A stretch of DNA of 64,000 nt from NCBI GenBank assembly GCA_963666285.1, contig OY762712.1; one strand, given 5' to 3'. Below are positions 1 to 46,831 of the stretch, piece after piece; position 1 is the first letter of the stretch, and every line of letters starts with the position of its first letter. Position numbers and translations under genes: made by a program. The notes below the pieces were generated by a model. That model was not told the DNA's origin. It did not search any database and saw nothing but the letters and a program-made list of their open reading frames with translations. Origin of the DNA: Sedimentisphaerales bacterium (GTDB lineage: Bacteria > Planctomycetota > Phycisphaerae > Sedimentisphaerales > SM23-30).

Positions 1-3000
1 CCCATAGCTTATCGACCAGATAGAATTTCTGCCATTTTTGTTCACCTCTGAACCATCGTTCCAGAGCCTGTTTGGATTCCATCTCAAATGAACCTTTATG
101 AGTACCACCCAAACCAACATATTCCAGGTATGGCTGTGACCGTTCCATATCATCGGTTATTTTATATGATAAAACCTTTTTCCAGGTAAACGGATTTAAG
201 ACGCCAAGCACACCATCGCCATCAACAAAACACTGTGCTGCGATAGTACGCATATGATGAGTCGGCAGAAACAACTTTATACCATTTATAGTATGGACAA
301 TTGTCCGGAAAGTTTTAACTACACCTTTACCGGTAACATTAACACTGTTTAGAGCCGCTGTCGGCCTATACAAGTCAGGATGAAGAATATAGCCGCTAAA
401 GATCGGTTCTTCGGTATCGCTGCCGGGCTGCAAGTAAAGTTTTCGCCAGCCTTTCACCTGGTCAAATTCCGCATCCCCTGCCTTGATAATACCACTGCCA
501 TAATACTTATCAACCAGATAATCACGCCAGCGGATCATAGCGGCCAACCTCCATATTGCAGCGACCTCTCTAAAAGCGTTAAGGGCAGGGTTGGTATCCT
601 GCAATTTTAACCCTAAAGCATGGGCATCAGCTACTGTAGGTATTTTCTTGTTTTTTATCATCTTCTGGGTAGTTGGATAATAACTGCTTAACTGCTCTTT
701 AGCTCGCTGTGGATCCTGATAAGAGCCATAGAAGTAATCGCTATAATACATCGCATCCATACCGAGACTATCCAGCAGTTCAAATGCCTTATCATATAAC
801 TGGCTTATATAACCTGCATATTCTCTTGCCCTGTCGGTAATTTCTTTTCGGGCGATCTCCTGCAATTCTTTTCCGCCATCAGTTTTGGCCTTACCTCGAT
901 AGCGGAATATATGCTCCTGCTGGTCGGGAGGGAGCTGCCCAATTGCCTCTGCCAGCTCCTTAAAGGTCATCTCCATATTCTCAAGCTTGTTCTGGCCAAA
1001 CTTCAGCATACCAACTTCAGGTGTAGATGCTAAACGCACAATTTCAGCGGTCACATCATAACCGAAAGATTTCTGGGCCATCTTATTAGGTTCAAGGACA
1101 TTGATGATCCCCCAATATAATGAAGCAGACTTTTGGAAACCGCCCTTGCCATACTTTTTAACCTGTTTCAAAATAGAGTGATTTGCTTTTGGCTCTGGTT
1201 CTTCATTGCTATTTTCTTGCTGTTTATCTCCCTCTTTCCCAAATAGCTTCTGAACATCCTCTGCTGTGGTATTATCTATACCTTTACCAGTTAGATATGT
1301 TCCGGGCCTGTTATCGGTTTTCTGATACTGGATGTGGCGGCCTTTTTCAATATTGTCAGATTTCTGGTTCCATACCTTACCGGAATACACCCTATTAAAT
1401 ATATCTCCAATATTTGACTTGCCGGTAATAGCAGTCCAAATCCTTCTGAAGAAATCCCTCACCTTCTTAAAATATGGATATCCTTTTGTATCTTGATTTG
1501 CTGCCCATCTGCCATAAGTCTCGGCAGCTTTTTCTTCATCGCCATTAAACCGCTTCAATACAATAGACCGCTCTTTCTCTGAAAGTGCTATATCCATAGC
1601 TGCATGGAACTGTTCGTGTGATAGTGTATCATCAGTAGCATAATAAGATGATAGTTTTATCATACCATCAAAATCTATCTGGCTGCCATTTTCCAAAGTG
1701 ATACTGCCTGGGATATTACTCCATAGGCCACGATAACCGTTTTTTTCACCACGACCGGCTATCTCAAGTTCAGCATTATTAACCTTAATAGTCTGGCCGT
1801 TTGGCAGAATAACTGCATATACTCCCTGCTGATCTGTTTGCGATACCTTATCAGGAGAGATACCAAATGCCTTTGCCAACCTTGCAGCATTTAATTTACT
1901 ACCTGTAAAAGTCTCTGCCAGAGCTATATATTCGCTATTATCAAGTCTGTCTAATGCTTCTGTATTAGCATCTGAACCCGGACCTTGTGACACCGCCCTC
2001 TTATTATCCGGGTTGCTATTTATAGAGCTTCTACGCATCTTGAACTCTCTGATAAGAGCCTCTGCATCCTTCCTGACAAAGCCTTCCTCTTCTAATGCTT
2101 TTTCCAGTTTATAGAGCAAATTATCAACAGTATCAGCCTTAAAGCTCCCCTCATTATTAAAGAAACAACCTACCCCTTTACCTTCCCGGTCACATTTAGT
2201 GCAGGTCCAGCCAGAATTAGTACCCCTTCCGGCGAGTTTCTTTTTACCGGAATCAACCGGACAGACATAAGGCTGTAAATTATCAGGTATGTTCTCCAGT
2301 TGATCTTCAGATAATAGCTTACTGCCAAGTTTTACCGGCAGAATAACCTGTATCCGGTCTGCATATTTTACCAGGTTATCGAGATCATCTTCCCCTTGAT
2401 AGGTAAAAGCAATAGGCAGATCATTATTATCTGCAATATGGGTATTAGTCCTGTCAATAGATAACAGCCTGACATTCCTCTTATCTACTTTAGCAAGCAA
2501 TTCCGGCCTTTTAGAGAACACCTGGCATCTGATACCATTGCGGTTAACCTCGTTTATCACCTCCACCCAATCTTCGCTCAGATCGCCGATATCGTTAAAC
2601 CTGAGAGCCTTATTGGCATCATGGTTAGCGGTAGGCTTATACTGGTTACTTATCATACGGCCCAGACGCTGTGGGTCCAGCGAAGCGGCAATATCAATAA
2701 TCTCACTTTTTATCATCGGCCCGGAATAACTGTAATTACCGCCGGTAGCATAACAGAAACGGGCGCAATCATCAGAAGGGCTGCAATGTGCCAGCGAACT
2801 GTTTACCGCCAGTGTCGGTTTAGCAGCCTTGCCGATAACACCGGTATCAACTATATAGGAAAATACACCTTCGATCCCATTTTCCTGCAACTGGCGATAT
2901 AGCTTCTCATTTTTAGTTTCTACAATATCAGTTTCCGGTATCTTATTATTCAGGATATCGATTATCTCATTACGCACTACCGCTCTTTTAGCAACTGCCC

Positions 3001-6000
3001 TGCCCCAATTGGTATCTTTCAGCTTTTCATATGAATCAAAGGTAGATTCAGGCAATACCTCAATATCACCGTAACTGCGTTTACGCAGCTGATAAGTGAT
3101 TTCAGGATTGTCTATATCGATAGGCTTATCCTGTATGGTATCGCTATTTAGAATTGACTCTGCCAGCGTCAGATCAACAGTATCTGGATTATCATAGATA
3201 TACTCTCTTAATATAGAAGCTCTATTAACAGCATTCTTGAACCATTCAATAATCTTGGCAAATAGTCTTGCCAGGGAACTATTACTTTCGACCTGTTTTT
3301 GCCAGTTATTTACTGCATCGGTTAGCCCTGCATTGGTATTTTTCCCCAGCCCTGCCAGCAGATAATCTGTCAGAAAATCACTGAGCCATTCGAGATTAGA
3401 CTTATCGTTTGTATAGCCGTCCAGATGCGATTCTTCAATCTGCTTTCTGAAGGCTTTAATCTCACTGTTCCTTTCGATATAGCTGACATCACCGAAATGT
3501 ATCTTTATTCTGGATTCAACCGCTTCATGGATTGCTGTAGTAGGATCAGAATTAGTAATAGCAAGCGAGATAACCGCTTTTTCATCGGCGATATAATTAC
3601 TACCTGAAACATCCACATCTTCTGGATTGACACCTTCTAAACCAGCTTCTTTTAATTTTTGCTCGATAAAACTCTCACGCTGATCGGCGGCAAGTTTACC
3701 TTCTGCAATAAGCTTATCAACATCTTGGGCCAGTGACCGGACCGCTTTTTCCAGTTTAATACCGGCATCAGGATTGACAGCTTTAATAATCTGCTCTAAA
3801 CTATCGCCGATAGCACTTAAATCAGGTTTATTTGCATCTTCCAGTAATATCTCTACATACCGGCGCTCATTTTTATTTACCTCCCAGGAATCGCTATCAG
3901 ACTTATCACCTGCCTTTTTAAGATGGTATCTGTTGACCGCCCCAACTTTCCTGCGAACGATCTCGGTATAACCATCATCTACCAACTCTTCTAGCCATTT
4001 GTGGGTAGTTATATTCTTACCCTTATAGCTGACATATTCACTTTCGAGGGTATCTATCAGATCTTCACGTTCTTTGGCTTTTCGGGCTTCTGCCTGTATC
4101 ATCTCCTGCTCATGCAGGTGTCTTTCATATTTATTTACCGCTTCCGATCCTGCCCACTCTCTTAGATGCTCGACAGTCCTTTTGGCTGTTTTAGGTAGTT
4201 TAGTACCGGTTAGCACCTCAAAGGCTTTTCTACTGGCCTTATTATGGATTGTAACATGACTTATAAGATTATTTAGGTCTTTATCCTGAATATACCCATT
4301 GATACGCCCTGCAATCTGATATGCCAGTTTGGCATTATGGCCTTTATAAGCTTTCTCAACCAGCTGCTGGTCATGCACTATCCTGTTGTGCCTTTCAATA
4401 TCATCACCTGTGGTATTGCGCTGCAGAACTTTGAATATCTCCATCGCCACCTTATCACTATCATTTTCGCCGGATTCCATCTGCCTGATAATATCTTCAG
4501 ATTCATCGATATTTTTCTGTAAGAGCTTGCGGCCATCATCTCTACGTTTAACCTGGTCATCTGACAGTTTTTCCTCTGGTTCAGGCTTTTTCTCTGCTGC
4601 TACTGAAGGTTTGGCCTGTTTTTGACTGCTGAGATATTCACCTTCCAGAACATCACTCCATTGCGGGATAGCCTTCTTTTCACCGGCTATATTTATTGGC
4701 ATGATAATAACCTTACCCACTGATTTACCGGAACTATCAATACCGCTTAGTAAGAAAGGACCATGATTATCTTTAGTGGTGTTGGCAGCTATTGCTAATG
4801 ACAATTTATCACTGCCAAGCTGACGCAATACCTTAACAGCATCCCTGAGATATGCTAGGTTGATACCAACATGAAAGTCTTTTACCGGTATCTTAATAGC
4901 ACGTTCAACTACATAGCCATCTGCTACAAAGGCGTTTGGATTGGCCTTTTCAGTAGCATTGGCAACTGCAACGATTCTATCTGCCTGGTCAGCTGATATC
5001 TCTTTTTCGATAGTTATTGTCTTACCCGGTACTACATCTGTCCAGCGGGGATATTTGCCCTTATGGGTAATAGAATAGCCATTTGCAGCTTTTTTATCTC
5101 TTTCATATATCTGCTCTGATTCTACTTCAGGGAATCGCTCTGCCAAACCTTCAGCTATCAGCATCCTTCTGCCGTCAGTTGCAACTACCTCACCGGTACC
5201 AGCAACAAAGAAAGTATCATTTATAACATACCTGCTCTGTTCAGTACCAGAATGGGTTAAGACAGTAGATACAAGCTGTTTGGTAGTATTAACTTTACCT
5301 ATTCTACTTACTTTTTTAGGTACAATAACAGTAAGGCCGTTCCTGGTATGCAGGGCATCTGATGCAACTTTGCGATGTTTTAGTGAAAATGCCTTACCGG
5401 ATTTTACCATCATCCATAAAAAATCATCCCCTGCTTTTTCCAACAGCCCGGCAGCTTCGGGCAATTCCAGTAATTTTATTTCAGAATTGTTAAGCTTTCT
5501 GCCTAATAGCTCTGATATCTCAGCTGCATACCGCTTGCGGTCAGTATTAGTTACTGACCTGTGACCGATTACCTTACCGCCATACCATTCGGGTGCATTG
5601 GCATGATCCTGGGCAGGATTATGCTTATCAGCTTTTTTTTCTTCCAGAGGTTCTGGCTTCTTATCTGGAACGGGAGCAGAAGATGACTTATTAACTGATT
5701 TTACTTTTTTTTCTTTTCCTGTTTTAATTTCATTCGATTTAGGTGCCGCTTCAGAATCAATTTCGTTTCGTTCATCTTCTGTAATCTCTCTGAAACGTGG
5801 ATTATTCAAGGCATTATATGGTCTGGTAGTACCAGGTGAATAATTCTTTTTCATCTGTTCTTCAGTATATGGTATATTAGAGATACTTCTTTCCGGTCGA
5901 GCCTTGATAACTTCCATTTCGGCAACACCATTCTTTTTGGTTCTACCTACTTTATAGATAGTTCCGGAATTTACATCAGCTACATAATCACCTACCGCAA

Positions 6001-9000
6001 ATGCTGCCGGGTTTTTTCCATTAGCCTTTTGAGGCTGTTCTATCCCTTTGTCTTTGAGATATTCACTCTGGGCTTCTATTACTTCAGCTTCGGTTTTATG
6101 CCATCTGTCGTTAATCTGATGCGGCGTATCACCTCTGAAATAGTAACCAGGTTTTCCAGAACGGGAATGAACATATATATCACCATCATTCAATCTATCA
6201 CTATAGTCAGGATATTTATCAGATAATCTCTCCCCTGATGGTTTCTTGCCTTTAACATCGACAATACCATCTATCCCCATAGTATTATCATTTCCAACAA
6301 CTATAGTATCATGGCCATGATCTACCTTTTTAATAGTTTTATATGTCTTTGAACCGGATACACGAACCTTATCGCCCACTTCAATATCGGTTATCTGCCA
6401 GCCATTTGCTGTTGTAGGCGTATATGGCTTAATTCCTGTTTTTTCAAACTCATCTAACTTATCAAAAGCAGCAAAAGTCTTTTTAAGGTTATCATAGGCA
6501 GAAGGTAGAATATCGGTATCAACTGAACCATCCTCAATATGTCTCAGGGAAACACCGGGTACATAAGGGGTAACATCACGTACATCCAGTTTACGGCCCT
6601 GTTTTTTGGCCTGTTCGATAATATCTTCGATCTGACCATCAGCTATATTTACGGTATTCTGCCTTAAACGCTCCAGCATGGTATTAACGGTCTTGATCTC
6701 TTTATCATACATTGATACAGGTATCTCAACTGTTTTACCTTTATCTGGACCGGCTACTACTTCTGCTTCAGCATAATCACCATAATAATCATCCTCACGA
6801 ATATTACCGGTTAGTTTATGTAATTGGGGGTCATACTTGATACGAGCATTATTCTCTGGCTCTTGCTTTTCTTCTGCCTTTACCTTTTTGGCAGATTTCT
6901 TCTTTTTGGCATTCGCTTTTTTACGTTTTTTATTGTCAACAGGTTTTGGCTTCTGTTTTTTATCGACAACACCATCACCACTATTATCTGGTTTATCCGG
7001 CAGTTTTGCAGGACTGCCACCTGCTTCATTATCATTATCGCCTTTTTGCTGTTGCTTCAGCTCGCGCAGACGATCATTAAGTTCCCTAATGATCTCTCGT
7101 TGTGTATCCGTTTGACGGTCCTGCATATCAAACTGCCAGAGCCTGTCTTCAATATCCTTGATCTCTTGTAATAGGGCATCAGTTGTTTTCTCGGATTGTT
7201 CCTGTTTTTTAATATCAGGTTCAGAATCTACGGTTTCAGTTGTTTCTTCCTGCTGACGGTTCTCTGGTTCTGTATCTTTCTGATCTTTTAATTCTTTATT
7301 TTCAGTTTGTTTTTGCGGTTCAACCACTAAATACGGAGTATCATCTAGCGGTTTATCTTTGCCCAGAACAGGCTTGTTATTTTTATTTAAGCGAACATAC
7401 AAGGTCTGGCCTTTTTCATTTGCCTTATCCTGGATACGGGAATATTCATCCACACTCAATTCTACGCCCAATTCCCCTTCACCTACAAACTTCCCGGAGC
7501 CTCCGTTGCTGACACCTTCAAAATTCTCCGGGATATGCTGATCGGTTGAATTAACCGTCTCAAATTCCGGCTGAACATATTTTCCTTCATTACCAATTAC
7601 AGTACCGACAGGATTAGTCTGGGCTTGAAGATATTCCTTGGCTACCTGGTTATTAGAAGATTCGATCTTGGCCTTGATAAACTGCTGCTGATTTTCATTA
7701 CCAAAATCATCCATGGTCAGGCCAAGCTCAAATAATCGCTGGATATCGTCACTGGAAGCTGAATTAGTCAGAACATCTTCCAGAGCAACTTCAGACATGG
7801 AATCTATACTTTCAGCATCGAATCTCCGGTTCTTTTCCGGGTCTATCTGCCGGGCGATAATCTGCCATCTTTTGCCCTTCGGTTCGATCTGGACATCGAT
7901 ATCATCAAATGCGCGATACAGCATACCTGCAATAGTATTAGCTGCTTCCTTAGTTTTAGCAGTCATTTTATAGCCGTCTTTACCCGGCTTGAGCCGCTTT
8001 GCCAGCGGTGTTGAGACTAGATCAGACCGCTGTCTTTGTGCGGTATAAGCCTCATTCATCTTGCGAGAGTTACCGGCAAGCTGTGAATCCTGCTCATATC
8101 CTTCCATATCTGGTATATCATACGGCTCCTGCCCGGCAACTTGCGGCAGTTCATCTTCCAGTGACTCTGCTGTCTTAAATGCCCTGTCATCCTGATACTT
8201 ATTATACTGACCTTCAATGACACTACCGGCTTTGCGAGCCGCTGCCGGGACCATTAGCACACCGGCTGTTGTCAAAAACTCTCTACCATCGGTCATATTT
8301 TCAATTGCCGCAAGCATCCGAGGCCCTAAACCAGCATCTTCACCAGCTCCGTAATCCTCAACTCCAGTTGCAGCACGGAGGATAGTGCCTAATTCTTCCT
8401 CCGACAGCTCCTCAATAAAACTGCCGACCTTGAGATTATCCCGCACAAAATCTGTAAACGGCCCCTGTTTAGCACCTAATTTATTATATACCTTCTCCAG
8501 ACCGGACAGTATTCTACCGGCAAACTGTGAACCAGGCAGCTTTTCCCCTATTTTGCCTATTATACCGCCTATCTTTTTACCGGCTGCGGTTATACCCTTA
8601 CCGGATATTTCGGTAAGGTTCTCGATATACATATCACCGGCAGCCTTGATAATTGACCTGCTGAAATCTTCAGGCCTCTGGATAAGTTCAAAACCGGTAT
8701 CAGTTAATTTATACTGGCCACTGTCAACGTAACGCTCTCCTGCATTTGCCATAATATCCGGTGTCATCTGGGCGGTTCTGGCTGTGGCATCAATACCAGC
8801 TCCAAGCAGTTTACCTCCTAATTGGACACTTTTATTTTTTAGAAACTTCTCAGCAGCATTCTTGCCTAAAATCTTTGTAATCAGCTTAACTGTGCTTTTT
8901 TCAGCACCTTCTTTGACTATTGATGCTCCCGGACCTGTTAAAGCAAATGTAGCAATAAAATCTGGTAATTCTAGCAGCCCCTGGATAATATCATTTGTGA

Positions 9001-9919
9001 TAGTGGTACCTCTAACCTCCAGTTCAGCCCGCTTATGGAGATATTCACTAACGATAGCAATATCCTTCTGCATCAGTTCAAGCTTCTGCTGTTCGGTCGC
9101 TTCTTCTTCACCTTCGTTATATGGATTTTTCCCCAGCATTTTATCAAAGACAGTTCGGCCCATACCGATAGGCATAGTCCTTTTAACCTTCAGGTTCTGA
9201 TATCGAACTGGATCACTGAGCCTGTCAACAGCAAGTTTCAGATCGGTACTGTTTTGAAGTGATACCAGAGTACCGACAACCGGAAACTTCTCTTTTATCT
9301 CCTTTTCAGACATTTTCTCCAGACCTTCTATCGCTCCTACTGGACCGGAATTCTCCCATTGATATATCTGCTCCGGCGTGAAATTCTCAGTCACCTGCGG
9401 GCTATACAGCATTTTCTGCATGGTCGGGTCTGGTTTTGAGAAAGGACCACCCTGTGGGATATTCTCTGCCCCTGCCATTGCATTTTTATACATATCATAG
9501 ACAGTCGGATTATCCAGGTTTCCGCTCATAACCTTGTCGTATCTGCGTGCGTGCTCTAGCTGCTCCGGTTTCATCGCTGCTCTGATTGAATCCGGTACAC
9601 CGGCCAAAGGATCATATTGCGGCCTATCTACAGGTTCTGTCATAACATCAGTTGCAAACTGCTCCAGAATAGGCTTGGCACTTATTTTCGCGACGGGTAA
9701 GCTACGCTCTTTTGCCCGATTCAATAGAAAACCGTCAGGAATATCCACCGCCGCCATTGCCGACGATAATCTATCCTGAACAATTGGGTTTACAGGTTTT
9801 TGCTGCGGTCCTTGCGCATTTCCTTCGAGGTTGGCCAGAACAGAATCAACATCAAAACTAATATTATTTTCAGGCTGGTCATCTTCAAGATTGGCCAGAA
9901 CATCATTTACATCTACCAT
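1..9919 (-). CDS. giant multidomain virion-associated (polyvalent-type) protein, N-terminal 3306 codons; stop lies left of the window
   Basis: ATG at 9919-9917 (MVDVNDVLANLEDD...). I translated the minus frame and codon-checked 5021-5188, 2744-2794 and 1604-1618 without meeting a stop. The track shows only short low-complexity antisense ORFs here, which fits an ORF omitted for lack of an in-window stop. It is the last gene of the structural operon. Confidence 0.8.
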   Translation of the reverse strand, partial: MVDVNDVLANLEDDQPENNISFDVDSVLANLEGNAQGPQQKPVNPIVQDRLSSAMAAVDIPDGFLLNRAKERSLPVAKISAKPILEQFATDVMTEPVDRPQYDPLAGVPDSIRAAMKPEQLEHARRYDKVMSGNLDNPTVYDMYKNAMAGAENIPQGGPFSKPDPTMQKMLYSPQVTENFTPEQIYQWENSGPVGAIEGLEKMSEKEIKEKFPVVGTLVSLQNSTDLKLAVDRLSDPVRYQNLKVKRTMPIGMGRTVFDKMLGKNPYNEGEEEATEQQKLELMQKDIAIVSEYLHKRAELEVRGTTITNDIIQGLLELPDFIATFALTGPGASIVKEGAEKSTVKLITKILGKNAAEKFLKNKSVQLGGKLLGAGIDATARTAQMTPDIMANAGERYVDSGQYKLTDTGFELIQRPEDFSRSIIKAAGDMYIENLTEISGKGITAAGKKIGGIIGKIGEKLPGSQFAGRILSGLEKVYNKLGAKQGPFTDFVRDNLKVGSFIEELSEEELGTILRAATGVEDYGAGEDAGLGPRMLAAIENMTDGREFLTTAGVLMVPAAARKAGSVIEGQYNKYQDDRAFKTAESLEDELPQVAGQEPYDIPDMEGYEQDSQLAGNSRKMNEAYTAQRQRSDLVSTPLAKRLKPGKDGYKMTAKTKEAANTIAGMLYRAFDDIDVQIEPKGKRWQIIARQIDPEKNRRFDAESIDSMSEVALEDVLTNSASSDDIQRLFELGLTMDDFGNENQQQFIKAKIESSNNQVAKEYLQAQTNPVGTVIGNEGKYVQPEFETVNSTDQHIPENFEGVSNGGSGKFVGEGELGVELSVDEYSRIQDKANEKGQTLYVRLNKNNKPVLGKDKPLDDTPYLVVEPQKQTENKELKDQKDTEPENRQQEETTETVDSEPDIKKQEQSEKTTDALLQEIKDIEDRLWQFDMQDRQTDTQREIIRELNDRLRELKQQQKGDNDNEAGGSPAKLPDKPDNSGDGVVDKKQKPKPVDNKKRKKANAKKKKSAKKVKAEEKQEPENNARIKYDPQLHKLTGNIREDDYYGDYAEAEVVAGPDKGKTVEIPVSMYDKEIKTVNTMLERLRQNTVNIADGQIEDIIEQAKKQGRKLDVRDVTPYVPGVSLRHIEDGSVDTDILPSAYDNLKKTFAAFDKLDEFEKTGIKPYTPTTANGWQITDIEVGDKVRVSGSKTYKTIKKVDHGHDTIVVGNDNTMGIDGIVDVKGKKPSGERLSDKYPDYSDRLNDGDIYVHSRSGKPGYYFRGDTPHQINDRWHKTEAEVIEAQSEYLKDKGIEQPQKANGKNPAAFAVGDYVADVNSGTIYKVGRTKKNGVAEMEVIKARPERSISNIPYTEEQMKKNYSPGTTRPYNALNNPRFREITEDERNEIDSEAAPKSNEIKTGKEKKVKSVNKSSSAPVPDKKPEPLEEKKADKHNPAQDHANAPEWYGGKVIGHRSVTNTDRKRYAAEISELLGRKLNNSEIKLLELPEAAGLLEKAGDDFLWMMVKSGKAFSLKHRKVASDALHTRNGLTVIVPKKVSRIGKVNTTKQLVSTVLTHSGTEQSRYVINDTFFVAGTGEVVATDGRRMLIAEGLAERFPEVESEQIYERDKKAANGYSITHKGKYPRWTDVVPGKTITIEKEISADQADRIVAVANATEKANPNAFVADGYVVERAIKIPVKDFHVGINLAYLRDAVKVLRQLGSDKLSLAIAANTTKDNHGPFLLSGIDSSGKSVGKVIIMPINIAGEKKAIPQWSDVLEGEYLSSQKQAKPSVAAEKKPEPEEKLSDDQVKRRDDGRKLLQKNIDESEDIIRQMESGENDSDKVAMEIFKVLQRNTTGDDIERHNRIVHDQQLVEKAYKGHNAKLAYQIAGRINGYIQDKDLNNLISHVTIHNKASRKAFEVLTGTKLPKTAKRTVEHLREWAGSEAVNKYERHLHEQEMIQAEARKAKEREDLIDTLESEYVSYKGKNITTHKWLEELVDDGYTEIVRRKVGAVNRYHLKKAGDKSDSDSWEVNKNERRYVEILLEDANKPDLSAIGDSLEQIIKAVNPDAGIKLEKAVRSLAQDVDKLIAEGKLAADQRESFIEQKLKEAGLEGVNPEDVDVSGSNYIADEKAVISLAITNSDPTTAIHEAVESRIKIHFGDVSYIERNSEIKAFRKQIEESHLDGYTNDKSNLEWLSDFLTDYLLAGLGKNTNAGLTDAVNNWQKQVESNSSLARLFAKIIEWFKNAVNRASILREYIYDNPDTVDLTLAESILNSDTIQDKPIDIDNPEITYQLRKRSYGDIEVLPESTFDSYEKLKDTNWGRAVAKRAVVRNEIIDILNNKIPETDIVETKNEKLYRQLQENGIEGVFSYIVDTGVIGKAAKPTLAVNSSLAHCSPSDDCARFCYATGGNYSYSGPMIKSEIIDIAASLDPQRLGRMISNQYKPTANHDANKALRFNDIGDLSEDWVEVINEVNRNGIRCQVFSKRPELLAKVDKRNVRLLSIDRTNTHIADNNDLPIAFTYQGEDDLDNLVKYADRIQVILPVKLGSKLLSEDQLENIPDNLQPYVCPVDSGKKKLAGRGTNSGWTCTKCDREGKGVGCFFNNEGSFKADTVDNLLYKLEKALEEEGFVRKDAEALIREFKMRRSSINSNPDNKRAVSQGPGSDANTEALDRLDNSEYIALAETFTGSKLNAARLAKAFGISPDKVSQTDQQGVYAVILPNGQTIKVNNAELEIAGRGEKNGYRGLWSNIPGSITLENGSQIDFDGMIKLSSYYATDDTLSHEQFHAAMDIALSEKERSIVLKRFNGDEEKAAETYGRWAANQDTKGYPYFKKVRDFFRRIWTAITGKSNIGDIFNRVYSGKVWNQKSDNIEKGRHIQYQKTDNRPGTYLTGKGIDNTTAEDVQKLFGKEGDKQQENSNEEPEPKANHSILKQVKKYGKGGFQKSASLYWGIINVLEPNKMAQKSFGYDVTAEIVRLASTPEVGMLKFGQNKLENMEMTFKELAEAIGQLPPDQQEHIFRYRGKAKTDGGKELQEIARKEITDRAREYAGYISQLYDKAFELLDSLGMDAMYYSDYFYGSYQDPQRAKEQLSSYYPTTQKMIKNKKIPTVADAHALGLKLQDTNPALNAFREVAAIWRLAAMIRWRDYLVDKYYGSGIIKAGDAEFDQVKGWRKLYLQPGSDTEEPIFSGYILHPDLYRPTAALNSVNVTGKGVVKTFRTIVHTINGIKLFLPTHHMRTIAAQCFVDGDGVLGVLNPFTWKKVLSYKITDDMERSQPYLEYVGLGGTHKGSFEMESKQALERWFRGEQKWQKFYLVDKLW

Positions 9920-9951
9920 TATATATAAATATCCTATCGATAGGGTTTATA

Positions 9952-10812
9952 TTACTGTTTATTTGGACTGGATTGGGTCTTTTTGAACGCTGCTTCAAGC
10001 TGTTCGACGGTTTTACCTTGTGCCTTTGGACTGGTTAAAAATGACTCCCATTTTTTCGTATCACCTTTAAACGGGTCAAAACCAAGCTTTTTGATAAGGT
10101 TGTCTTTAGTAGGTACAGAACCAGGGTCAGGACTTGCCATCTCAACCAGTACATTACCGCTGGTGCGATCATATTTCTGCTGAAATCTATCTACATATTC
10201 ACGCAGCTTAGACCGCTTGGCGGCATAATCTCCGATTTTGTTATATTCATCCAGTGCATCATTATCATAACCATCGAATGTATCGCCAATATCCGGCAGC
10301 CATGAAGTCCATTTATTGCGATTATCTTCTCGAATGGAACTGTGCATTTCTTCATTGAAACTGCCATCTTCGTTATACCATTGATCGGCTGTTCCAGGAC
10401 CGCCCCATCCTTCTGGAACCGCTGCCTGCATCTGAGATTCCACCCCGGCAAGCTGCTCCTGGGCATATTCATACATTGAAAGTTCCGCTTTACTGGGAGT
10501 ACCGCTATTGGAATATTCAAAACCGCTGGTATCAATACCTAACTGAGTTCCCAATGACCTGAAATTCTCGAACTCTTCCGGGCTTCTGGCAGACATAGCT
10601 AACTGGGCAAACTTCATCATACTGTCCTGTTTGGCCTGTTTTTCCTGGAATGCAATTTGTTCCTGCTGTAATTTCTGCTGATCTTTATATCTTTTATCCT
10701 GCTGAGCCTGTCTATCTGCCTGGATAAGCGTATCACCTGCCTTACTCATCCCGGCAGCGAGTGCTGCACTTCTGGGGTCTATCCCCCTATGTATAACCTG
10801 CATCTGTGGCAT
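9952..10812 (-). CDS. hypothetical virion-associated protein (Gln/Lys-rich N-terminal half)
   Basis: 286-aa ORF between the ejection-type protein and the giant gene. Same strand with tight spacing. Confidence 0.6.
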   Translation of the reverse strand: MPQMQVIHRGIDPRSAALAAGMSKAGDTLIQADRQAQQDKRYKDQQKLQQEQIAFQEKQAKQDSMMKFAQLAMSARSPEEFENFRSLGTQLGIDTSGFEYSNSGTPSKAELSMYEYAQEQLAGVESQMQAAVPEGWGGPGTADQWYNEDGSFNEEMHSSIREDNRNKWTSWLPDIGDTFDGYDNDALDEYNKIGDYAAKRSKLREYVDRFQQKYDRTSGNVLVEMASPDPGSVPTKDNLIKKLGFDPFKGDTKKWESFLTSPKAQGKTVEQLEAAFKKTQSSPNKQ

Positions 10813-10840
10813 ATTATATTTCTCCTCAAAATAACTGTGT

Positions 10841-12982
10841 TTATGCTGTTACCGCCGCAACTTGTGTTTCGCCCATATAGCCATTCATCAAACCCAACAG
10901 CGAAGCCATATCCAGACCACCGGTATTACTCTGGAACCAGTTTGCCATAGCCGTATCAAGAGATGCCTGGTCCTGAACCTGCTCCATACCATATAACTGC
11001 CATAAAATCGCCAGAGTATTAGCTTCCTGCATGTCAAGGTCAGCATTCATCATGGCATCAGTCCACTTGGCATTATTAAATACCTGATCTGTCAAAGCCT
11101 GGGTATAGTCAGTTGAAGCCTTCTGGCTACGCAATGTTTCCGGCAATGAAGCGAGCGACATCATACTCTGGGCCGCTGTCAGGCCACGATTGGCATGTGT
11201 CTCTTTCATCTGTGTGATATAATCCGACCGGCTCGATGCAAGTTCATCTTCCAGTTCAGATCGGGCAGCTCCCACTGTTTTAGTTGCCTGAGAGCCAAAC
11301 AGATCATCATCCCCGAACTGCTGATAAACATCTGCTACCGTTTCATTATTGAATTTCTCGATAGTTGGGTCATAGATACTCTTATCGAAACCTTCGTTAG
11401 CCGCATCAGAGTCAAAGGAATCCGTATATTCACTTAACGCCTGTGATATTGTTTCAAGGTAATGGTCACTACCAACTGAAGTATCAATCGGGGTTTCTAC
11501 CTGAGACCAGATACCATCTTCACCCTGACTGTATTTAGATGGGTCAACTATCCAGTTGCCGCTACTGTCACGGGTAAGATCATCGGCTGTAATTTCGGTA
11601 GTTCCCAGACCGGAGAGGTAATCCTGCTGGGACTGCTGATCGGTTAGATAGTCATTTACCGCTGTGTCCATACCAGCGAGAATATCATCACCGGCGGCAA
11701 GTTTCCAATCGCCGGTAGTTGCATCCCAGGACATGCCCTGATTTTTTAATACTCCACTGTTATAACTGTCCAGATAGTCGTTAAAGCCGCTATAGTCACT
11801 GCCAAGCCGTTCCATGATACTGGCTCGCAACTCTTCATTATCACTGGTTTTCTGCTGCTGATTGTTATAATAATTATCAAATTCACTAAAAACAGCATCC
11901 ATCGAGCCATCTGTATATTGGAAGGGATTTTCAAAGCCAAGTTTACCAGTCGCAGTATCATAGCCAAGTGTCTTATTAGAGTCATAATACTTATTTAGAT
12001 CGCTGTCGTTATACCATTTCTCAAAAGCGGCAGATTTATCAGAATCATACTGACCGATAGTATTATCGAGATATGGGTTAGTCTCAGAGGTTTCCAGGCT
12101 ATCCAGCCATTTGCCATACTCATCCATATAGTTTTTAGCTGAACCATAGCCAGGTAATTTCCACACCCCGGAATTTTCCTTATATAACATATTGTCGGAA
12201 CCGCCTTTATTGTTCCATTTTTCATACCAGGACCATTCATTTTTATTTTTCGGCGTTTTTGTCTGGTTGCCACCACGACCGCTTACATTATAGCCACCAG
12301 TTTTATAATCCTCCATATACTGATTATAAGAATCATCCAGATAGCTGTTAAAAGCACCCATAACATCATCATCCGGTTTTACACCGCTGGTATATTGATT
12401 CAACTGGTCCGGGTCATACCACTTATCACCAACCTTATAATGAGGTGTAATTGTGCCACCTGCCGCCATACCAACATCAGCTCCCATCTGCTTTTTAACC
12501 GCCTCAGATTTAGCCTGTGCGGATTCCGGGTCTTTAAGACTGTTTGGGTTAGGCTCTACAACTACAGTACCATCAGCGGCAACATGTAATTTCTCAGGAC
12601 CATCTTCACCTACAACAATAGTATCACCAGGCCCGGCGACAGCTCCCAAAGCGGCATAATGAACCCCCGGAGTCTCTCCCGGTCTGGAATAGCCGCCCAT
12701 CCTTGCACCGATCTGGTCAGCTTTATCTAATATCCCCTTCTGCCGGTCGGTCAAACCCGCTAACTTACGCTGAGGCGCATTTTTCAGCTTATTCATTATC
12801 GGGTCCATACTCTCGATCTTACCACGACTGTTACGGGTAACACCCTGGATAAAATCAAATAGCTGACGATTGATTACTTTTTGCTCCTTCGATAACGTAC
12901 TTGTACGATGTACATCTGCACCTTTCTGTAATAAAGGTGATGCTGCCTGCATCGCTGCACCTGCTAAAGCCATCCAACTCAT
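10841..12982 (-). CDS. internal virion/ejection or tape-measure-like protein
   Basis: 713-aa ORF. It has a VVGEDGPEK motif (nt 12593-12613) of the GE-x-GPE type seen in tape-measure/ejection proteins. The central region is rich in Tyr, Trp, Asp and Asn. Confidence 0.55.
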   Translation of the reverse strand: MSWMALAGAAMQAASPLLQKGADVHRTSTLSKEQKVINRQLFDFIQGVTRNSRGKIESMDPIMNKLKNAPQRKLAGLTDRQKGILDKADQIGARMGGYSRPGETPGVHYAALGAVAGPGDTIVVGEDGPEKLHVAADGTVVVEPNPNSLKDPESAQAKSEAVKKQMGADVGMAAGGTITPHYKVGDKWYDPDQLNQYTSGVKPDDDVMGAFNSYLDDSYNQYMEDYKTGGYNVSGRGGNQTKTPKNKNEWSWYEKWNNKGGSDNMLYKENSGVWKLPGYGSAKNYMDEYGKWLDSLETSETNPYLDNTIGQYDSDKSAAFEKWYNDSDLNKYYDSNKTLGYDTATGKLGFENPFQYTDGSMDAVFSEFDNYYNNQQQKTSDNEELRASIMERLGSDYSGFNDYLDSYNSGVLKNQGMSWDATTGDWKLAAGDDILAGMDTAVNDYLTDQQSQQDYLSGLGTTEITADDLTRDSSGNWIVDPSKYSQGEDGIWSQVETPIDTSVGSDHYLETISQALSEYTDSFDSDAANEGFDKSIYDPTIEKFNNETVADVYQQFGDDDLFGSQATKTVGAARSELEDELASSRSDYITQMKETHANRGLTAAQSMMSLASLPETLRSQKASTDYTQALTDQVFNNAKWTDAMMNADLDMQEANTLAILWQLYGMEQVQDQASLDTAMANWFQSNTGGLDMASLLGLMNGYMGETQVAAVTA

Positions 12983-13048: not shown

Positions 13049-15289
13049 CTATTTCCAAGCGAAAATCCTGATATCTGACGGATCAGCAACACCACCCCAA
13101 TTACCTGTACTGCCGCCAGGTTCTGTAGAAAACTGATATGTAGGATTACTGCCATCTATACCAAAATATATATACGATGATGTTACCTTATACACCGCTG
13201 CCCCATAATCACCGCCATGCACCGAATTTGCTTCATTTACTATTTCCGGGCTGGCGTGTGATCTTACATACAGCTTAAAATATGTAGGTACTACACCAAG
13301 GCCATGACTTACTTTATATGAATAGTTACTGACTAGCCCTGTACCAGATGCATTTACAGAAGCAATTCCACTGGATGAACTATTAAGCCAGCCACTATCG
13401 AAAAACTTACTGGATACAGAACCGTTCCCGGAAAACTTCAATGCCGCCGGGTGAATTGTATTTGATGATTCTATTGTGCAATTTCTTATGTAGGTTTTAT
13501 TGTAGCCGTCTATATAAGTGTTTCCATTGGTACTGCCACAATATAATAGAAAAGACATCACCCAACTGCCCGTACCATATTTACTACTGACTGATAAACC
13601 ACCAGGCGCCAGCCTTAACAGTGTATCTCTCGATGTTGATGTGCTGGAATTACGTATCTGGGCGGCATCGACAATAGCGGCTGATATCTCTATAATATCC
13701 TTATAACTGCTCTTATCATCTTCCATATACAGTTTACCGTCAGTTACATTGAAGTATGCCGTATTACTGCCTAAGAAACCCTCATCCACCCGTACAACAA
13801 CTCTGGTTGTATAGGCTGAATCTTCATAGACGGTATAACAGTGTATATACCTGTCAGATGCTTCAGTACCACCGGTACCAACGTAGAAATATCCCTTCTG
13901 CTGACCATTTACGGTATTCATCCCTAAAAACGCAGGCCATTGGTTAGCACTCGTATCGAAGAAACCAACGCCATTATGCCAGATATAACAGCCGGTAGAA
14001 TTAGCATCACTCCAGGTCTGACCAATATCGTTTGCGGCGATAATATCGTTTATCTTCTGATAACTACTGACATCCGGGATAGCATTATCAACATAAGTTG
14101 TAGTGGCATATCCTGCCAGACTGGGAATTGCATCATCTACATACGATTCAGTTGCATAACCTGACAAATCTGGGATAGAATCATCCACATAGGTCTCTGT
14201 CGCATACCCAGATAGAGAATTGCTTATCTTGGTATTTACCTCAGAAGCGGTATCATAACTATTTAATGTACTGGAAAGTTCGCTGCCGGTAACATAATCG
14301 GTAAGAGTTATCGATATCTGACCATCGGTAATGGTAGTATTATATACCCTGTCTTTGAGCAACACCCAACCAGAGCCATTAAACTGATACCTCTGGCCCG
14401 TTACATAATTATGGTTATCATAAGTGAAATCATCATTTATATGGACAATATCACCGGTAAGCGGTGTATCGGGCATATCATCGGCACTCTCGGCAATGAA
14501 ATTACTGATCTTATTAGCTATCATCTGCCAGTTGCCACCGTTATATTGATACATTCGACCGGCATCAAAAATATCGAAACTTGTATCAACATAAATGATA
14601 TAGCCATCAGTTGGATTTGCCGGCAATTCAGATATGTCTGATACATTACTGGAAAACTGCTGCTGACCGACAAGCTGCCAGCCGGCAGCGGTATAGCTGT
14701 AAACTGAACCTTTAGTATAGGTATCATCACCAACAGTAAAATCTGATTCAATATACAACATATCGCCAATCTTAGGCTCATCGGGCATATCAGATGCTTC
14801 ATTAGCTATCAGAATATTCTGCCGGTTGCCTATCTCCTGCCAGTTTTCACCATCAAAACTATAAACCTCCCCTTTTTGATAAATACCAAAATCCGCTGTT
14901 ATATAAATTAGATCGCCAATATCAGGATCTTCTGGCATCTCAGCTAAGCTTGCCGCAAAAGTTGATATTATCCCGGTCGCTTCTGTAGTAAATACCAGAG
15001 AGTTATTTTCCGGGTCAATAGTAATTGAACCGGCACCCGAAGATGAAAGTACAAGACTGCCCCCTGTCCCGGCTGATGTGATAACGCTGCCATCTTCTGT
15101 TATCATCTCGGTAAAGCCCAGTTGAGCCTGGATACGACTGCGCCTGCCGAAATCTGCCAGACCATCGTGTATCCGGTTCATTTGAGCTACAATCCTGTCC
15201 AGATATTCTTCCAGCGGTTCACCTGGCTGTCTGTATTCGATCTTAGATGCAGGAAGCATACGATCAATATGTAACCCTAAATCGGCCAT
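13049..15289 (-). CDS. tail fiber protein
   Basis: 746 aa. Four tandem ~45-aa repeats (P-[ED]-x-P-x-x-G-D-[LMI]-x-Y-I ... G-x-W-Q). Three consecutive GYAT-x-x-YVD-x-x-IP repeats typical of phage fibers. Start overlaps the terS stop. Confidence 0.75.
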   Translation of the reverse strand: MADLGLHIDRMLPASKIEYRQPGEPLEEYLDRIVAQMNRIHDGLADFGRRSRIQAQLGFTEMITEDGSVITSAGTGGSLVLSSSGAGSITIDPENNSLVFTTEATGIISTFAASLAEMPEDPDIGDLIYITADFGIYQKGEVYSFDGENWQEIGNRQNILIANEASDMPDEPKIGDMLYIESDFTVGDDTYTKGSVYSYTAAGWQLVGQQQFSSNVSDISELPANPTDGYIIYVDTSFDIFDAGRMYQYNGGNWQMIANKISNFIAESADDMPDTPLTGDIVHINDDFTYDNHNYVTGQRYQFNGSGWVLLKDRVYNTTITDGQISITLTDYVTGSELSSTLNSYDTASEVNTKISNSLSGYATETYVDDSIPDLSGYATESYVDDAIPSLAGYATTTYVDNAIPDVSSYQKINDIIAANDIGQTWSDANSTGCYIWHNGVGFFDTSANQWPAFLGMNTVNGQQKGYFYVGTGGTEASDRYIHCYTVYEDSAYTTRVVVRVDEGFLGSNTAYFNVTDGKLYMEDDKSSYKDIIEISAAIVDAAQIRNSSTSTSRDTLLRLAPGGLSVSSKYGTGSWVMSFLLYCGSTNGNTYIDGYNKTYIRNCTIESSNTIHPAALKFSGNGSVSSKFFDSGWLNSSSSGIASVNASGTGLVSNYSYKVSHGLGVVPTYFKLYVRSHASPEIVNEANSVHGGDYGAAVYKVTSSYIYFGIDGSNPTYQFSTEPGGSTGNWGGVADPSDIRIFAWK

Positions 15290-15861
15290 TATTCGGTGGA
15301 CTCCTCCCCTATCTGCGTTGCCATTTGCAGCATTTCAGTTAGCCGTTTAGCTCTTTCTGCCGGTGTAAGATCGATGATATCATCTCTTATAAGCTGTTTA
15401 CCGCCACTGGTAATATCAACCTTATTACCATAGACATCAGGCATACGTGATTGCAGATACAGTCTCATCGCCGGTACATCAGGTGGACAGTGCATTTTTT
15501 TGGTAACTTTCTTGGTTTTAGTAGTGTCAATAACCTCACCTGTTTTAGTTACCACCTGATCATCGATTGTTTCAGAGTGTTCTTCCTCATAATCGTAGCC
15601 TAAACAGCGGTCGATAAGTTTGCGTTCGATCTTCTCGGTAGCAAACTCACGTTCACCTTTCAATACCGCCTGTCGAAATTCGGGTTTTTCCTTTCTCCAT
15701 CGCATCCAGGTACGATATGAAATACCCATCGCATCACAGGCATCTTTTACCGACCAGCCAAGCTTCAGGAACTTGGTAGCCTGGGAAGGCATAACCTTAT
15801 CACAATATTTCTCATGTGCTACAGGTTCAGTTTTTTTACTTGTCACTTTCTTTTTTGCCAT
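15289..15861 (-). CDS. terS: terminase small subunit
   Basis: 190 aa. HTH region (GWSVKDACDAMGISYRTWMRWRKEKPEFRQAV) and C-terminal PPDVPAMRLYLQSRMPDVYGNK resemble terS families. The gene is coupled 1 nt (TAATG) to terL. Confidence 0.65.
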   Translation of the reverse strand: MAKKKVTSKKTEPVAHEKYCDKVMPSQATKFLKLGWSVKDACDAMGISYRTWMRWRKEKPEFRQAVLKGEREFATEKIERKLIDRCLGYDYEEEHSETIDDQVVTKTGEVIDTTKTKKVTKKMHCPPDVPAMRLYLQSRMPDVYGNKVDITSGGKQLIRDDIIDLTPAERAKRLTEMLQMATQIGEESTE

Positions 15862-17726
15862 TAGTAATAGTCATCCTCATCATCTTCATAGTGATCCGCA
15901 GGATGCCAGCGTCCCTCACAGCCGCCAATTACCATATCAGGTGCAAAACCACTATTATCATCTGTATTAGTTGCCGCTACCGTCCCCCTGTGTGCTGCCA
16001 GATGTAATAACATCTGGATAGCTATAAGCAGACTTATCACATCATCATCATGCTCACCGTCTGGATGGGTTGGCTTACCATTTTTATCAAATCGCCAAGC
16101 CGCTGCCTGTGAAATCGTCTGCCAGCAGTTGATCTTGACCATATTATCACGTATCCAATGCTGACCATCTGACACCATCATGGCACGAGATATCTTATCA
16201 GTACACCATCCTACCTTCTTTGTAGGTTTATCAGTCTCGGTATCATATATTTCACGGGTATATAAATTGGGATATTCCAGTCGCAATAAACCAGACCTCA
16301 CCGCACCACCGGAAGTATTATTAACTTCAAAGCCAAGCAAGGCGTTATTATAGAATCGGCCCAGCATATCCAATTGACAGGCATATAAATCAGGGTCAAA
16401 CCGCCCTTCAAGCTTCGCTACCATTTCACGGGTATCAGCACGCAAAACAGTTGCAGAATGACTATCCGGGTCTTTTGTTTCGGTTGGGTCCAGACCTTCG
16501 GAAGTGTCAGCTCCTATCACATAATCAATACCTATCAGCGGCATTTCCCATATTTTTAGCCACGGATATGGGTTTTCCGGCTGCTGGTCCAGGACAATAT
16601 CAGGTGCGGTCTTGGGCGGCCTTACACCATTAGTAATAGTAGAATCTGTAAACTGACCTTTTTTAAGCAGCGACTTACAACGCTTGTGCATCTGCTGAAG
16701 GATACCGGCATTAAATACCGGCCTGCCGGAAACCAGAAAGGCTTCATTATCACAACTGGGATATTCCTGTTTGAACTTATCCAGATCGCTCTGGCATTTA
16801 CCGGTGATAGTTTCCCTACGCCATTGTAGTTGTTCATCTGTCAGATCGTATAATTCTGCCAGTTCCTGTTCATTACCATAGACCGAATGTTCATAGTTGG
16901 TACGCTTAAAATCAACCGGAATCGGCGATTTATAATCCTCAAAGACATGCCACGGCAGAAATACCGCAATCCATTCTGTTTGGCCTTTGGGAAGTGTTAC
17001 AAACTTATTATCCGGGTCGAAACTGGTAGCACTGCACCACATATCATAAAATGTACCACCCAGACCATTTGCCGTACTTTCCAGAACTACACAAGTATCA
17101 GGTGTCATATTAGCATCCGGTACAGACTGCATAACGGCATTAAGACATTCACCGGCAAAAGGCCAAAAAGCCACCTCAGAGCCATGTATATAGTGGTTAG
17201 TACTTCCACGACCAAGTTCCGGGTTTCCTGCCGTCTGAACGGCGATAAGGGAATTATGCGGGCTTTGATATTCTATTTCCCGGCGGTTATTATACTTCTC
17301 GCTCCTGCGATACGGGTTAGCATCCTGCATCTGCTTAACCCTGCGAAATATATCGATAGAACTTTCCTGTTTATGGGCAACTATCATCGCCCGGCGATTG
17401 GCTTTTGTATTTATATCACAGAAGGAATCGGCAGAAGCTTCGGTTGTTATACCCATCTGCCTGGCTTTAAGAATAATCATCTTAATAGGCAGTCCAGCCG
17501 ACCGGAGCCTGTGCTTTACCTTCTGTACGATAATCTGGGCCTTATTAAGACGTAAAGGTATTTGCTTGCCCTCTTTATCGGTTATCAGGCAATGCACAGG
17601 AATCCAGTTAGCCGGTTCTGCCAATAACAGTTCTTCCAGCCGGGCCGCCATTGTGGGGTCTTTGGCAATCTCCTCAATTGCTTCCGGGTTTATCTGGGAG
17701 CTGATTTTGTCGGTTAAAGCTACCAA
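15861..17726 (-). CDS. terL: terminase large subunit
   Basis: 621 aa. ILKARQMGITT Walker-A-like motif and a C-terminal nuclease-type acidic motif (GEHDDDVISLLIA). TTG start preceded by AAGAGG. Confidence 0.85.
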   Translation of the reverse strand: MVALTDKISSQINPEAIEEIAKDPTMAARLEELLLAEPANWIPVHCLITDKEGKQIPLRLNKAQIIVQKVKHRLRSAGLPIKMIILKARQMGITTEASADSFCDINTKANRRAMIVAHKQESSIDIFRRVKQMQDANPYRRSEKYNNRREIEYQSPHNSLIAVQTAGNPELGRGSTNHYIHGSEVAFWPFAGECLNAVMQSVPDANMTPDTCVVLESTANGLGGTFYDMWCSATSFDPDNKFVTLPKGQTEWIAVFLPWHVFEDYKSPIPVDFKRTNYEHSVYGNEQELAELYDLTDEQLQWRRETITGKCQSDLDKFKQEYPSCDNEAFLVSGRPVFNAGILQQMHKRCKSLLKKGQFTDSTITNGVRPPKTAPDIVLDQQPENPYPWLKIWEMPLIGIDYVIGADTSEGLDPTETKDPDSHSATVLRADTREMVAKLEGRFDPDLYACQLDMLGRFYNNALLGFEVNNTSGGAVRSGLLRLEYPNLYTREIYDTETDKPTKKVGWCTDKISRAMMVSDGQHWIRDNMVKINCWQTISQAAAWRFDKNGKPTHPDGEHDDDVISLLIAIQMLLHLAAHRGTVAATNTDDNSGFAPDMVIGGCEGRWHPADHYEDDEDDYY

Positions 17727-46185: not shown

Positions 46186-46205
46186 AAAACTCCTTTTTCG
46201 TTATA

Positions 46206-46772: not shown

Positions 46773-46831
46773 ACCATATTCTCCTAAAAAATATCATTTA
46801 GTTTTCCCCGAAGCATTTCGATACTTCAGCG

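Follow-up and report, generated by a model that had tools for sequence, protein, structure and literature searches.

A giant gene in the late block of a Sedimentisphaerales-associated phage probably codes for a polyvalent virion protein

Very large phage proteins in which unrelated globular domains are joined in one polypeptide have been described as polyvalent proteins (Iyer, Burroughs, Anand, de Souza & Aravind 2017, PMC5512222). Their commonest hub domain is a zincin-like region with an HExxH motif, and a methylase-helicase combination like that of DarB, the head-packaged protein of phage P1, is among the architectures described for them (PMC5512222). In gp50 of phage N4 (3500 aa), the N-terminal region is for injection, the polymerase occupies the middle, and the C-terminal region, which includes an HExxH domain, serves encapsidation (PMC5512222). 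A further giant, gp47 of the Stx phage phi24B (vb_24B_48, 2807-2811 aa), carries LPD5, LPD1 and LPD38 together with a metallopeptidase and was found in virions by proteomics; it is not visible in the cryo-electron microscopy map, and the authors proposed that it is an encapsidated ejection protein with a conduit role (bioRxiv 10.64898/2026.04.10.717836). Here we describe a giant gene at the left edge of a 64,000-nt stretch of DNA (the window) from contig OY762712.1 of the Sedimentisphaerales bacterium assembly GCA_963666285.1. The product of this gene is probably a polyvalent virion protein of a temperate phage of the short-tailed type, packed in the particle and ejected with the DNA.

The gene was pointed out in an earlier note on this DNA, which claimed an uninterrupted open reading frame (ORF) of at least 3306 codons on the minus strand. 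This claim stands. From its ATG at 9919 to the window edge, the translation of 1-9919 runs through 3306 codons without a stop, for which the probability is ~1e-99 with the base composition of the ORF itself (per-codon stop probability 0.067) and ~1e-97 with that of the minus strand of the window. The remaining five frames across the same 9.9 kb contain 94-440 stops, and the plus-strand ORFs within 1-9919 reach only 81-138 aa, in agreement with the remark in the note that just short antisense ORFs are found there. The preceding minus-strand gene ends at 9952. Homologous proteins and loci were numbered (P0001 and L001 onwards), and an orthologue, P0001, is coded as a single gene of 3527 aa in an independent ENA assembly (contig_4, our L001, 64,891 bp). 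It is identical to the giant protein at 80% of positions over aa 7-960 and at 90% over aa 1403-3306. Residue 3306 aligns with residue 3098 of the 3527 in P0001, which places ~429 residues beyond the left edge of the window, and the complete giant protein is expected to have ~3735 aa.

In a codon-level comparison with L001, the ratio of nonsynonymous to synonymous changes (pN/pS) was 0.07-0.27 in all eight tiles, with the maximum at aa 1-330 and the minimum at the GP88 domain described below. Because the ratio is low in every tile, the sequence is under purifying selection as a protein over its whole length. The giant ORF is a real, selectively maintained single phage gene. Its unusual length and the fact that it is cut by the window, and nothing more specific, could raise the suspicion of an assembly chimera or of several genes joined through sequencing errors. 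However, a single 3527-aa gene recurs with conserved synteny in the independent ENA assembly, the same ends are retained in P0005 (3258 aa) and P0002 (5491 aa), selection is uniform over the tiles and the open frame has a chance of ~1e-97. An assembly or frameshift artefact is practically excluded by the synteny with P0001 and by the purifying selection along the whole length. The earlier note had named a stop codon or a frameshift inside 1-9919 as what would undo its claim; there is no stop, and the frame is matched independently by the single gene of P0001.

The modular structure of the protein was mapped by BLASTP and phmmer with tiles of the giant protein against its relatives. At least five separable modules were distinguished, each with a different set of relatives (Table 1). 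Both ends are conserved. The N-terminal module (alignment A3, seven proteins of 1864-5491 aa) is carried by P0001, P0002, P0005, P0007, P0008 and P0090, all of which have the C-terminal module as well. The C-terminal module, starting at aa ~2920, is ~800 aa long as judged by P0001 and mostly helical with one hydrophobic helix; its second half lies past the window edge and, again judged by P0001, contains the QNFYGEMNERLFGRS and PGFxEGN motifs and the hydrophobic helix. In the alignment of this module (A2), 53 columns are invariant across 12 proteins whose identity to the first sequence is only 24-61%. When aa 2290-3306 were searched exhaustively with HMMER, 449 cluster representatives were obtained at E<=1e-3, and the best 150 were analysed. 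The C-terminal module was present in 29 of these best 150 of 449, in proteins of 1100-5491 aa and always 450-500 aa from the C-terminus. It was also found in 23 IMG/VR viral contigs and in five contigs of metagenome-assembled genomes (MAGs), where the ORF carrying it is usually 1200-2100 aa long, so that the giant protein is at the far upper end of the range.

What lies between the two ends differs from protein to protein. In the 1368-aa protein of locus L006, the N-terminal module (aa 23-464, by the A3 hidden Markov model, HMM) is followed directly by the C-terminal module. In P0002, helicase domains (PF13871/PF13872) and visible cytosine- and adenine-methylase motifs are found between the same two modules, and P0005 keeps both ends and has no clamp-like segment of the kind described below. 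Variable insert 1 of the giant protein (aa ~700-1400), in which small beta-rich-looking units can be recognized by eye, is 64% identical to part of P0002, and the place of aa 960-1400 is taken by unrelated sequence in the orthologue P0001. The C-terminal part of the unassigned region at aa 1770-2289 (~285 aa) accompanies the GP88 module in P0005 (8e-77), and aa ~1880-2024 weakly resemble the C-terminus of a 2026-aa protein found in pND6-2-type plasmids (six plasmid records, E ~1e-4). Because both ends occur in the bare L006 protein and in the helicase- and methylase-bearing P0002, and the C-terminal module is found in mostly smaller ORFs, these sequence comparisons show that the ends form a constant carrier frame and that the ~2000 aa between them consist of exchangeable domains. 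The carrier family defined by the N- and C-terminal modules is undescribed. The L006 gene occupies 8267-12373 on the Planctomycetes MAG contig NJBM01000005.1 (312,709 bp), presumably within a prophage, which hints at Planctomycetota as one host group.

The cysteine cluster seen in the earlier note proved to be the Pfam GP88 domain with seven invariant cysteines, arranged in alignment A1 as C2379-x5-C2385-x3-C2389, followed by a Tyr and by C2553, C2573, C2576 and C2585. The giant protein has only nine cysteines in 3306 residues, and eight of them are inside this module. The GP88 score was 27.1 bits for the tile aa 2290-2600 against a Pfam cut-off of 24.4, and 22.9 bits with the whole protein; 25 of 26 aligned homologues of the module match Pfam GP88. 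Among the best 150 of the 449 representatives, 125 carry the module, mostly in proteins of 2000-7058 aa and some in shorter or stand-alone form, and GP88 also exists as a stand-alone phage protein. The carriers include P0003, with LPD37 and RadC, and P0004, with LPD23 and ART-PolyVal. An AlphaFold 2 (AF2) model of the module (pLDDT 85, pTM 0.87) is a partial beta/alpha barrel, whose top match by Foldseek in BFVD was a phage GP88 protein (E 7e-28, TM 0.89), and no match at E<=1e-3 was obtained against PDB structures. Judging from the model and the invariant cysteines, the GP88 module is probably a metal- or Fe-S-binding enzyme. We make this assignment without membership in the radical SAM superfamily, because solved structures give no significant match. 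Radical SAM identity was considered and rejected: the motif is Cx5Cx3C and not CX3CX2C, Pfam gives no Radical_SAM family, and the Foldseek matches to TIM barrels, QueE, PFL-activase and 'Radical_SAM' phage proteins were all non-significant (E 0.2-1.6).

These properties bear on the possibility that the giant is a purely structural protein of the internal core or of ejection, whose size serves to build a trans-envelope conduit or to fill the core and whose domains are scaffolding without effector activity. The C-terminal module, mostly helical with its one hydrophobic helix, would suit such a protein; the minimal relatives of 1200-1400 aa carry little or no insert, and a conduit is what the phi24B authors propose for gp47. 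However, the strongest purifying selection (pN/pS 0.07) falls on GP88, where seven invariant cysteines and a barrel-type fold are suited to a cofactor-binding enzyme, GP88 occurs as a phage protein on its own, and the equivalent position is taken in relatives by domains such as ART, RadC, methylase and helicase. We consider the purely structural explanation unlikely.

The HExxH motif noticed earlier also has substance. It reads HEQFH at aa 2768-2772 (nt 1606-1618) and is followed ~27 aa downstream by a conserved glutamate in an AAE sequence, a pattern that is retained in P0001, P0002, P0005, P0008 and P0145. Pfam Tox-MPTase2 matches the region weakly (E 0.042). The A2 profile region 10-235 matches phi24B gp47 at 1199-1437 with 26 bits in a two-sequence comparison, around the HExxH at 1297 of gp47, in a region annotated as metallopeptidase. 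An HExxH with a downstream glutamate fits the description of the zincins of polyvalent proteins (PMC5512222), and the region is a probable zincin-like metallopeptidase on the basis of these motifs.

The segment that the earlier note had called clamp-like gives a weak, non-random and collinear match to the beta sliding clamp DnaN. The collinear alignment to Escherichia coli DnaN scored 128.8 against 73.6 +/- 10.2 in shuffled sequences, none of 400 of which reached this value (z-score 5.4). An HMM made of nine sequences, E. coli DnaN and eight diverse plasmid DnaN paralogues, gave 16.2 bits, compared with a maximum of 7.6 in 2000 shuffles. Its match consists of two collinear stretches, profile 137-190 to residues 1547-1598 of the giant protein and profile 318-368 to residues 1681-1742, and among 152 other giant relatives it recognized only the orthologue P0001. 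The segment resembles DnaN collinearly at the hallmark motifs ATDGxR, G(R/K)(F/Y)P..xxV.P, G(F/I)N..Y..D and the C-terminal MP.(R/N)(L/I). It differs from DnaN in that it is embedded in a huge protein, is ~295 aa long instead of 366 aa and lacks much of domain II in the alignment; its score is only 16 bits, the Pfam clamp families are silent, and neither Pfam nor a phmmer search of PDB sequences gave a match to the segment. We therefore describe the similarity to DnaN as weak, although it does not seem to be random. Divergent dnaN paralogues that match E. coli DnaN were also found in 646 plasmid records, including conjugative plasmids, which suggests that mobile elements often bring their own clamp.

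Comparison with the described polyvalent proteins places the giant protein among them. It is one polypeptide of >2000 aa with unrelated globular domains, it is coded among late and virion genes, it has an HExxH zincin-like region, and its GP88 domain is shared with carriers of ART-PolyVal, RadC, LPD23 and LPD37. On the other hand, none of its modules except GP88 matches a Pfam LPD or curated family, and it has no MuF domain. The words 'clamp', 'cysteine' and 'GP88' are absent from the text of PMC5512222; the clamp-like insert, the GP88 insert and the N/C carrier family are probably outside its catalogue. The predicted HExxH peptidase, the clamp-like domain and the Cys-rich barrel showed no significant match to a characterised enzyme. 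As the earlier note had argued, the protein is better understood as a polyvalent protein than as a single enzyme, since GP88 is shared with the LPD37+RadC and LPD23+ART-PolyVal proteins and the ends are shared with the helicase/methylase protein P0002.

Some features are common to the giant protein and phi24B gp47, for which virion data exist. Both giant genes are located in the late block of a temperate phage, a podovirus in the case of phi24B and probably a short-tailed phage here, gp47 being the last gene annotated in the linear GenBank record of phi24B, downstream of the virion genes. TerL of the window finds Stx-type phages among its relatives at <60% identity, and the HExxH regions match at 26 bits as mentioned above. 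However, gp47 has no direct similarity to the giant protein of the window (phmmer E 0.23), and the N- and C-terminal modules of the two are different; the window protein has no LPD5, LPD1 or LPD38, and gp47 has neither GP88 (the A1 HMM is negative) nor a clamp-like domain. The C-terminal ~900-aa module of gp47 forms the end of 21 of the 125 GP88 carriers, none of which has an A2-type C-terminus, and P0133, which has the A2-type C-terminus of the window protein, shares 550 aa with gp47 at 5e-75. Because of these two observations, the inserts and the family of the giant protein can be said to exchange domains with the virion-associated gp47.

With N4 gp50, the giant protein shares the three-part logic, a similar size and a place after several virion genes (gp53-gp52-gp51-gp50 in N4), but no RNA polymerase domain was found in it and no homology was detectable anywhere. 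The earlier note had pointed to the size range of the N4-type virion RNA polymerases. We asked accordingly how well the giant would fit an encapsidated protein with a central T7-like single-subunit polymerase that transcribes early genes. Its length is similar to that of gp50 (~3735 vs 3500 aa), its gene likewise stands last in a series of virion genes, and it has an HExxH in the C-terminal third. Against this stand the absence of any RNA polymerase family in Pfam even at E<=10 on tiles and of any PDB sequence match, and the uniformly negative comparisons with gp50 by phmmer, the A2 HMM and hhalign. Structures of the N4 mini-virion RNA polymerase and of other phage RNA polymerases are present in the PDB. 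Moreover, the stretches that are still unassigned, 440, 340 and 520 aa, are each shorter than the ~1100-aa polymerase. A virion RNA polymerase is very improbable, and we rejected this reading on the absent polymerase family and the negative gp50 comparisons.

The other ejection system with which the giant can be compared is gp14-gp15-gp16 of T7. In three IMG/VR loci (L021, L022 and L010), the gene with the C-terminal module comes after a gene for a 'tail protein' (PHROG 376), one for an 'internal virion protein' (PHROG 418) and, directly before it, an ORF of ~515-613 aa without a match; a tail-spike gene comes next in L021. This is the order gp12-gp14-gp15-gp16-gp17 of T7, a resemblance in position only, and it is also similar to gp53-gp52-gp51-gp50 of N4. 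The giant protein is helical with a hydrophobic segment; however, it has no sequence or structural similarity to gp16 and no lytic transglycosylase family in Pfam. Because the end modules have no detectable homology to gp16 or gp50, a gp16-like role is suggested by gene position in distant relatives and by analogy. As to P1 DarB, the relative P0002 has its helicase and methylase between the same ends and P0139 gives a short match to a DarB-like PHROG, whereas the window protein itself has neither a methylase nor a helicase domain.

The giant could also be a late cytoplasmic polyprotein, for example an anti-defence or replication factor, that is not packaged and is tied to the structural genes only by operon layout. 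The clamp-like and GP88 domains could equally work inside the producing cell. This explanation is at odds with the surroundings of the C-module gene, which has virion genes for neighbours in several of the IMG/VR contigs with inspected flanks, and with the carrier-plus-insert design, which is that of the packaged or proposed-packaged N4 gp50 and phi24B gp47; late expression would also be poorly timed for factors needed at entry. We regard it as decidedly unlikely.

Several results nevertheless weigh against a packaged and ejected polyvalent protein. The end modules have no match in Pfam, PHROGs, NCBIfam or PDB, and a tblastn comparison with 50,697 GenBank phage records gave none either; indeed, no part of the giant gene matched these phages by megablast and tblastn. 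For the whole protein, Pfam, PHROGs, PDB and NCBIfam gave nothing usable but the sub-threshold GP88, and the profiles of the GP88, C-terminal and N-terminal modules gave nothing significant against PDB. In profile comparisons, the end modules were not detectably homologous to T7 gp16 or N4 gp50: the A2 HMM does not match gp50, and hhalign gave probabilities of 0.2% for gp50 and 0.1% for gp16, in both cases from tiny alignments without secondary structure that have little power. For the C-terminal part, AF2 gave a weak model (pLDDT 62), to which Foldseek assigned generic helical repeats but no structural neighbour; no PDB entry reached E<=1e-3, and the T7 core entry 9jyy_G had E 2.3. The ejection-cassette context comes from distant relatives only, and the three genes upstream in the window are without family match. 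Finally, packaging, ejection, processing and every enzymatic activity are what we infer, for the giant protein as for its N/C-module family. Of the earlier proposal of a packaged, injected multi-effector protein, the part that stood is a single gene within the polyvalent network, and packaging, injection and effector activity share this conditional status.

With these points in mind, we still favour the polyvalent virion protein, for which the following course of events can be proposed. The carrier frame would consist of the N-terminal module (aa ~150-680) and a C-terminal part, namely the HExxH region plus the ~800-aa module with its hydrophobic helix. It would here hold ~2000 aa of exchangeable inserts, comprising the charged linkers and Lys-rich tract, a putative DnaN-derived domain, the unassigned region and GP88. 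The protein would be made late and packed inside the capsid, and it would leave by way of the tail, either before the DNA or together with it, as has been described for N4 gp50 and P1 DarB and suggested for gp47 of phi24B. Cleavage of the polypeptide by the HExxH domain may follow, and the DNA metabolism of the host or of the phage might then be the target of the inserted domains during the first minutes of infection.

A bolder version of this proposal, which we consider doubtful though conceivable, is that the N/C modules represent an undescribed family of ejection carriers, mainly in uncultivated lineages (Planctomycetota, Saccharibacteria, other MAGs and IMG/VR). Its cargo here would be of two types, both unrecorded for injected proteins: a beta-clamp mimic that captures or decoys, on the incoming genome, those replication and repair proteins of the host that bind the clamp, and a GP88 metallo- or Fe-S enzyme with seven cysteines, which would be a hub of giant polyvalent proteins that is widespread but has gone unrecognised.

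Table 1 Features of the giant protein and of the surrounding genes in the window.
Feature	Residues (aa)	Position (nt)	Strand	Remarks
Giant ORF	codons 1-3306 of ~3735 estimated	1..9919	minus	ATG at 9919; nt 1 is the first base of codon 3307; left edge cuts the frame
N-terminal leader	1-150	9472..9919	minus	least conserved part common to P0001 and P0002
Conserved N-terminal module	151-680	7882..9469	minus	Gly-rich hydrophobic stretches; invariant acidic E..EE..G helix
Variable insert 1	700-1400	5722..7822	minus	charged linkers; Lys-rich tract aa 987-1019 (nt 6865-6961)
Diverged beta-sliding-clamp (DnaN)-like domain, weak similarity	1451-1745	4687..5569	minus
Clamp-like motifs				RYVIN..F..GE..VATDGRRM (to aa 1586), GKYPRW..VVP (1621-1631), VGINLAYLRDAVKVL (1684-1698), IIMPINI (1738-1744)
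Unassigned region	1770-2289	3055..4612	minus
GP88 (PF17338) domain	2290-2600	2122..3052	minus
HExxH region	2690-2830	1432..1852	minus
C-terminal module, first half	2920-3306	2..1162	minus	motifs YFYGxY, PTxADA, NPxxNxxRE
286-aa protein		9952-10812	minus	same order before giant gene in L001
713-aa protein		10841-12982	minus	same order before giant gene in L001
746-aa protein		13049-15289	minus	same order before giant gene in L001
TerS		15289-15861	minus
TerL		15861-17726	minus
Virion structural protein		17924-19471	minus
Major capsid protein		25051-26244	minus
Scaffold			minus	between portal and major capsid in listed order
Portal		28186-30555	minus
Replication initiator		31900-33228	minus
Integrase		41238-42272
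Three paralogous beta-helix tail-spike genes		42799-60553	minus

The giant gene sits in the late block of the window, downstream of the portal, scaffold, capsid, TerL and TerS genes. Because an integrase and paralogous beta-helix tail spikes are present together with the structural genes, the element is a temperate and probably short-tailed phage. Its TerL is ~28-33% identical to those of uncultured Caudoviricetes, Roseobacter phage CRP-7, Vibrio phages and Escherichia phage GER2 (28%), and it matches 452 records, all below 60% identity and many of them Stx2-converting phages. The gene order of L001 is that of the window, with TerL, TerS, the orthologues of the 746-, 713- and 286-aa proteins and the giant gene.

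Two statements of the earlier note about this neighbourhood were not borne out. The genes before the giant gene had been taken for a tail fiber and two ejection-type proteins, labels that could not be substantiated: TerL and TerS are followed by the 746-, 713- and 286-aa proteins, which have no significant family match in PHROGs, Pfam or NCBIfam. Comparisons with N4 gp50-54 and T7 gp12-16 by phmmer, HMM and hhalign were negative throughout. With the exception of p515, the neighbouring proteins of the window have no counterparts in 28 related loci. The giant gene had also been said to close the structural operon. Since two beta-helix tail-spike genes come after it in L001 (their homologue in the window is 57830-60553, minus strand), it does not close the structural block.

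Some further features of the two contigs were noted. In the direction of transcription TerL comes before TerS (15289-17726, minus strand), and both are downstream of the portal and capsid genes and directly before the three unassigned genes and the giant gene, an unusual placement for the terminase. In L001, a gene for a 390-aa cytosine-5 DNA methylase (PF00145) lies at 3443-4615 between TerS and the orthologue of the 746-aa protein, and it is absent from the window. The tail-spike paralogues have 1128, 1003 and 907 aa and are 28-41% identical, and paralogous ORFs of ~190-260 aa are found downstream of or between them (46206-46772, 46832-47602, 47599-48342, 48388-49008, 49053-49658 and 57123-57749). 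The region is a duplicated receptor-binding cassette, of which L001 has two. The G+C content is 0.41-0.47 in the structural half (1-31000) and 0.33-0.43 in 32000-64000, which points to a mosaic origin or to a more host-like character of the tail-spike and accessory genes.

At the right end of the window, an ORF of at least 743 aa starts on the plus strand at 61770 and leaves the edge at 64000. It begins with an N-terminal signal-peptide-like segment and contains G(Y/F)NxGxI / GGLxGxN repeats of the GLUG-like surface-protein type, and it would be convergent with the giant gene if the element were circular. Because in L001 the first tail spike is separated from the giant gene by only ~970 nt, this ORF may be a moron or flanking host DNA. 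We do not regard the entire window as a single circular phage genome, as the plus-strand ORF exits the right edge. Between the tail-spike gene and this ORF lie ~1.2 kb of AT-rich DNA (60554-61769), in which no sizeable ORF, Rfam family, tRNA or clear repeat family was found.

Proteins of the kind described here are already known, and it is the carrier family, the clamp-like insert and the GP88 hub that are the new leads. The first minutes of infection are decided by proteins that enter the cell together with the phage DNA, of which few have been characterised. The same two ends can be bare (1368 aa), joined to a methylase and helicase (5491 aa) or joined to the clamp-like and GP88 domains (~3735 aa), and the carrier family is in this sense a natural catalogue of candidate early effectors. 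GP88, which is present in hundreds of giant-protein clusters, gains a context and a testable role. The design of the carrier suggests a route by which engineered protein cargo could be delivered with phage particles. If the clamp-like domain does bind host replication partners, it would represent a new way for a phage to seize the host replisome at entry, or to shield itself from it.

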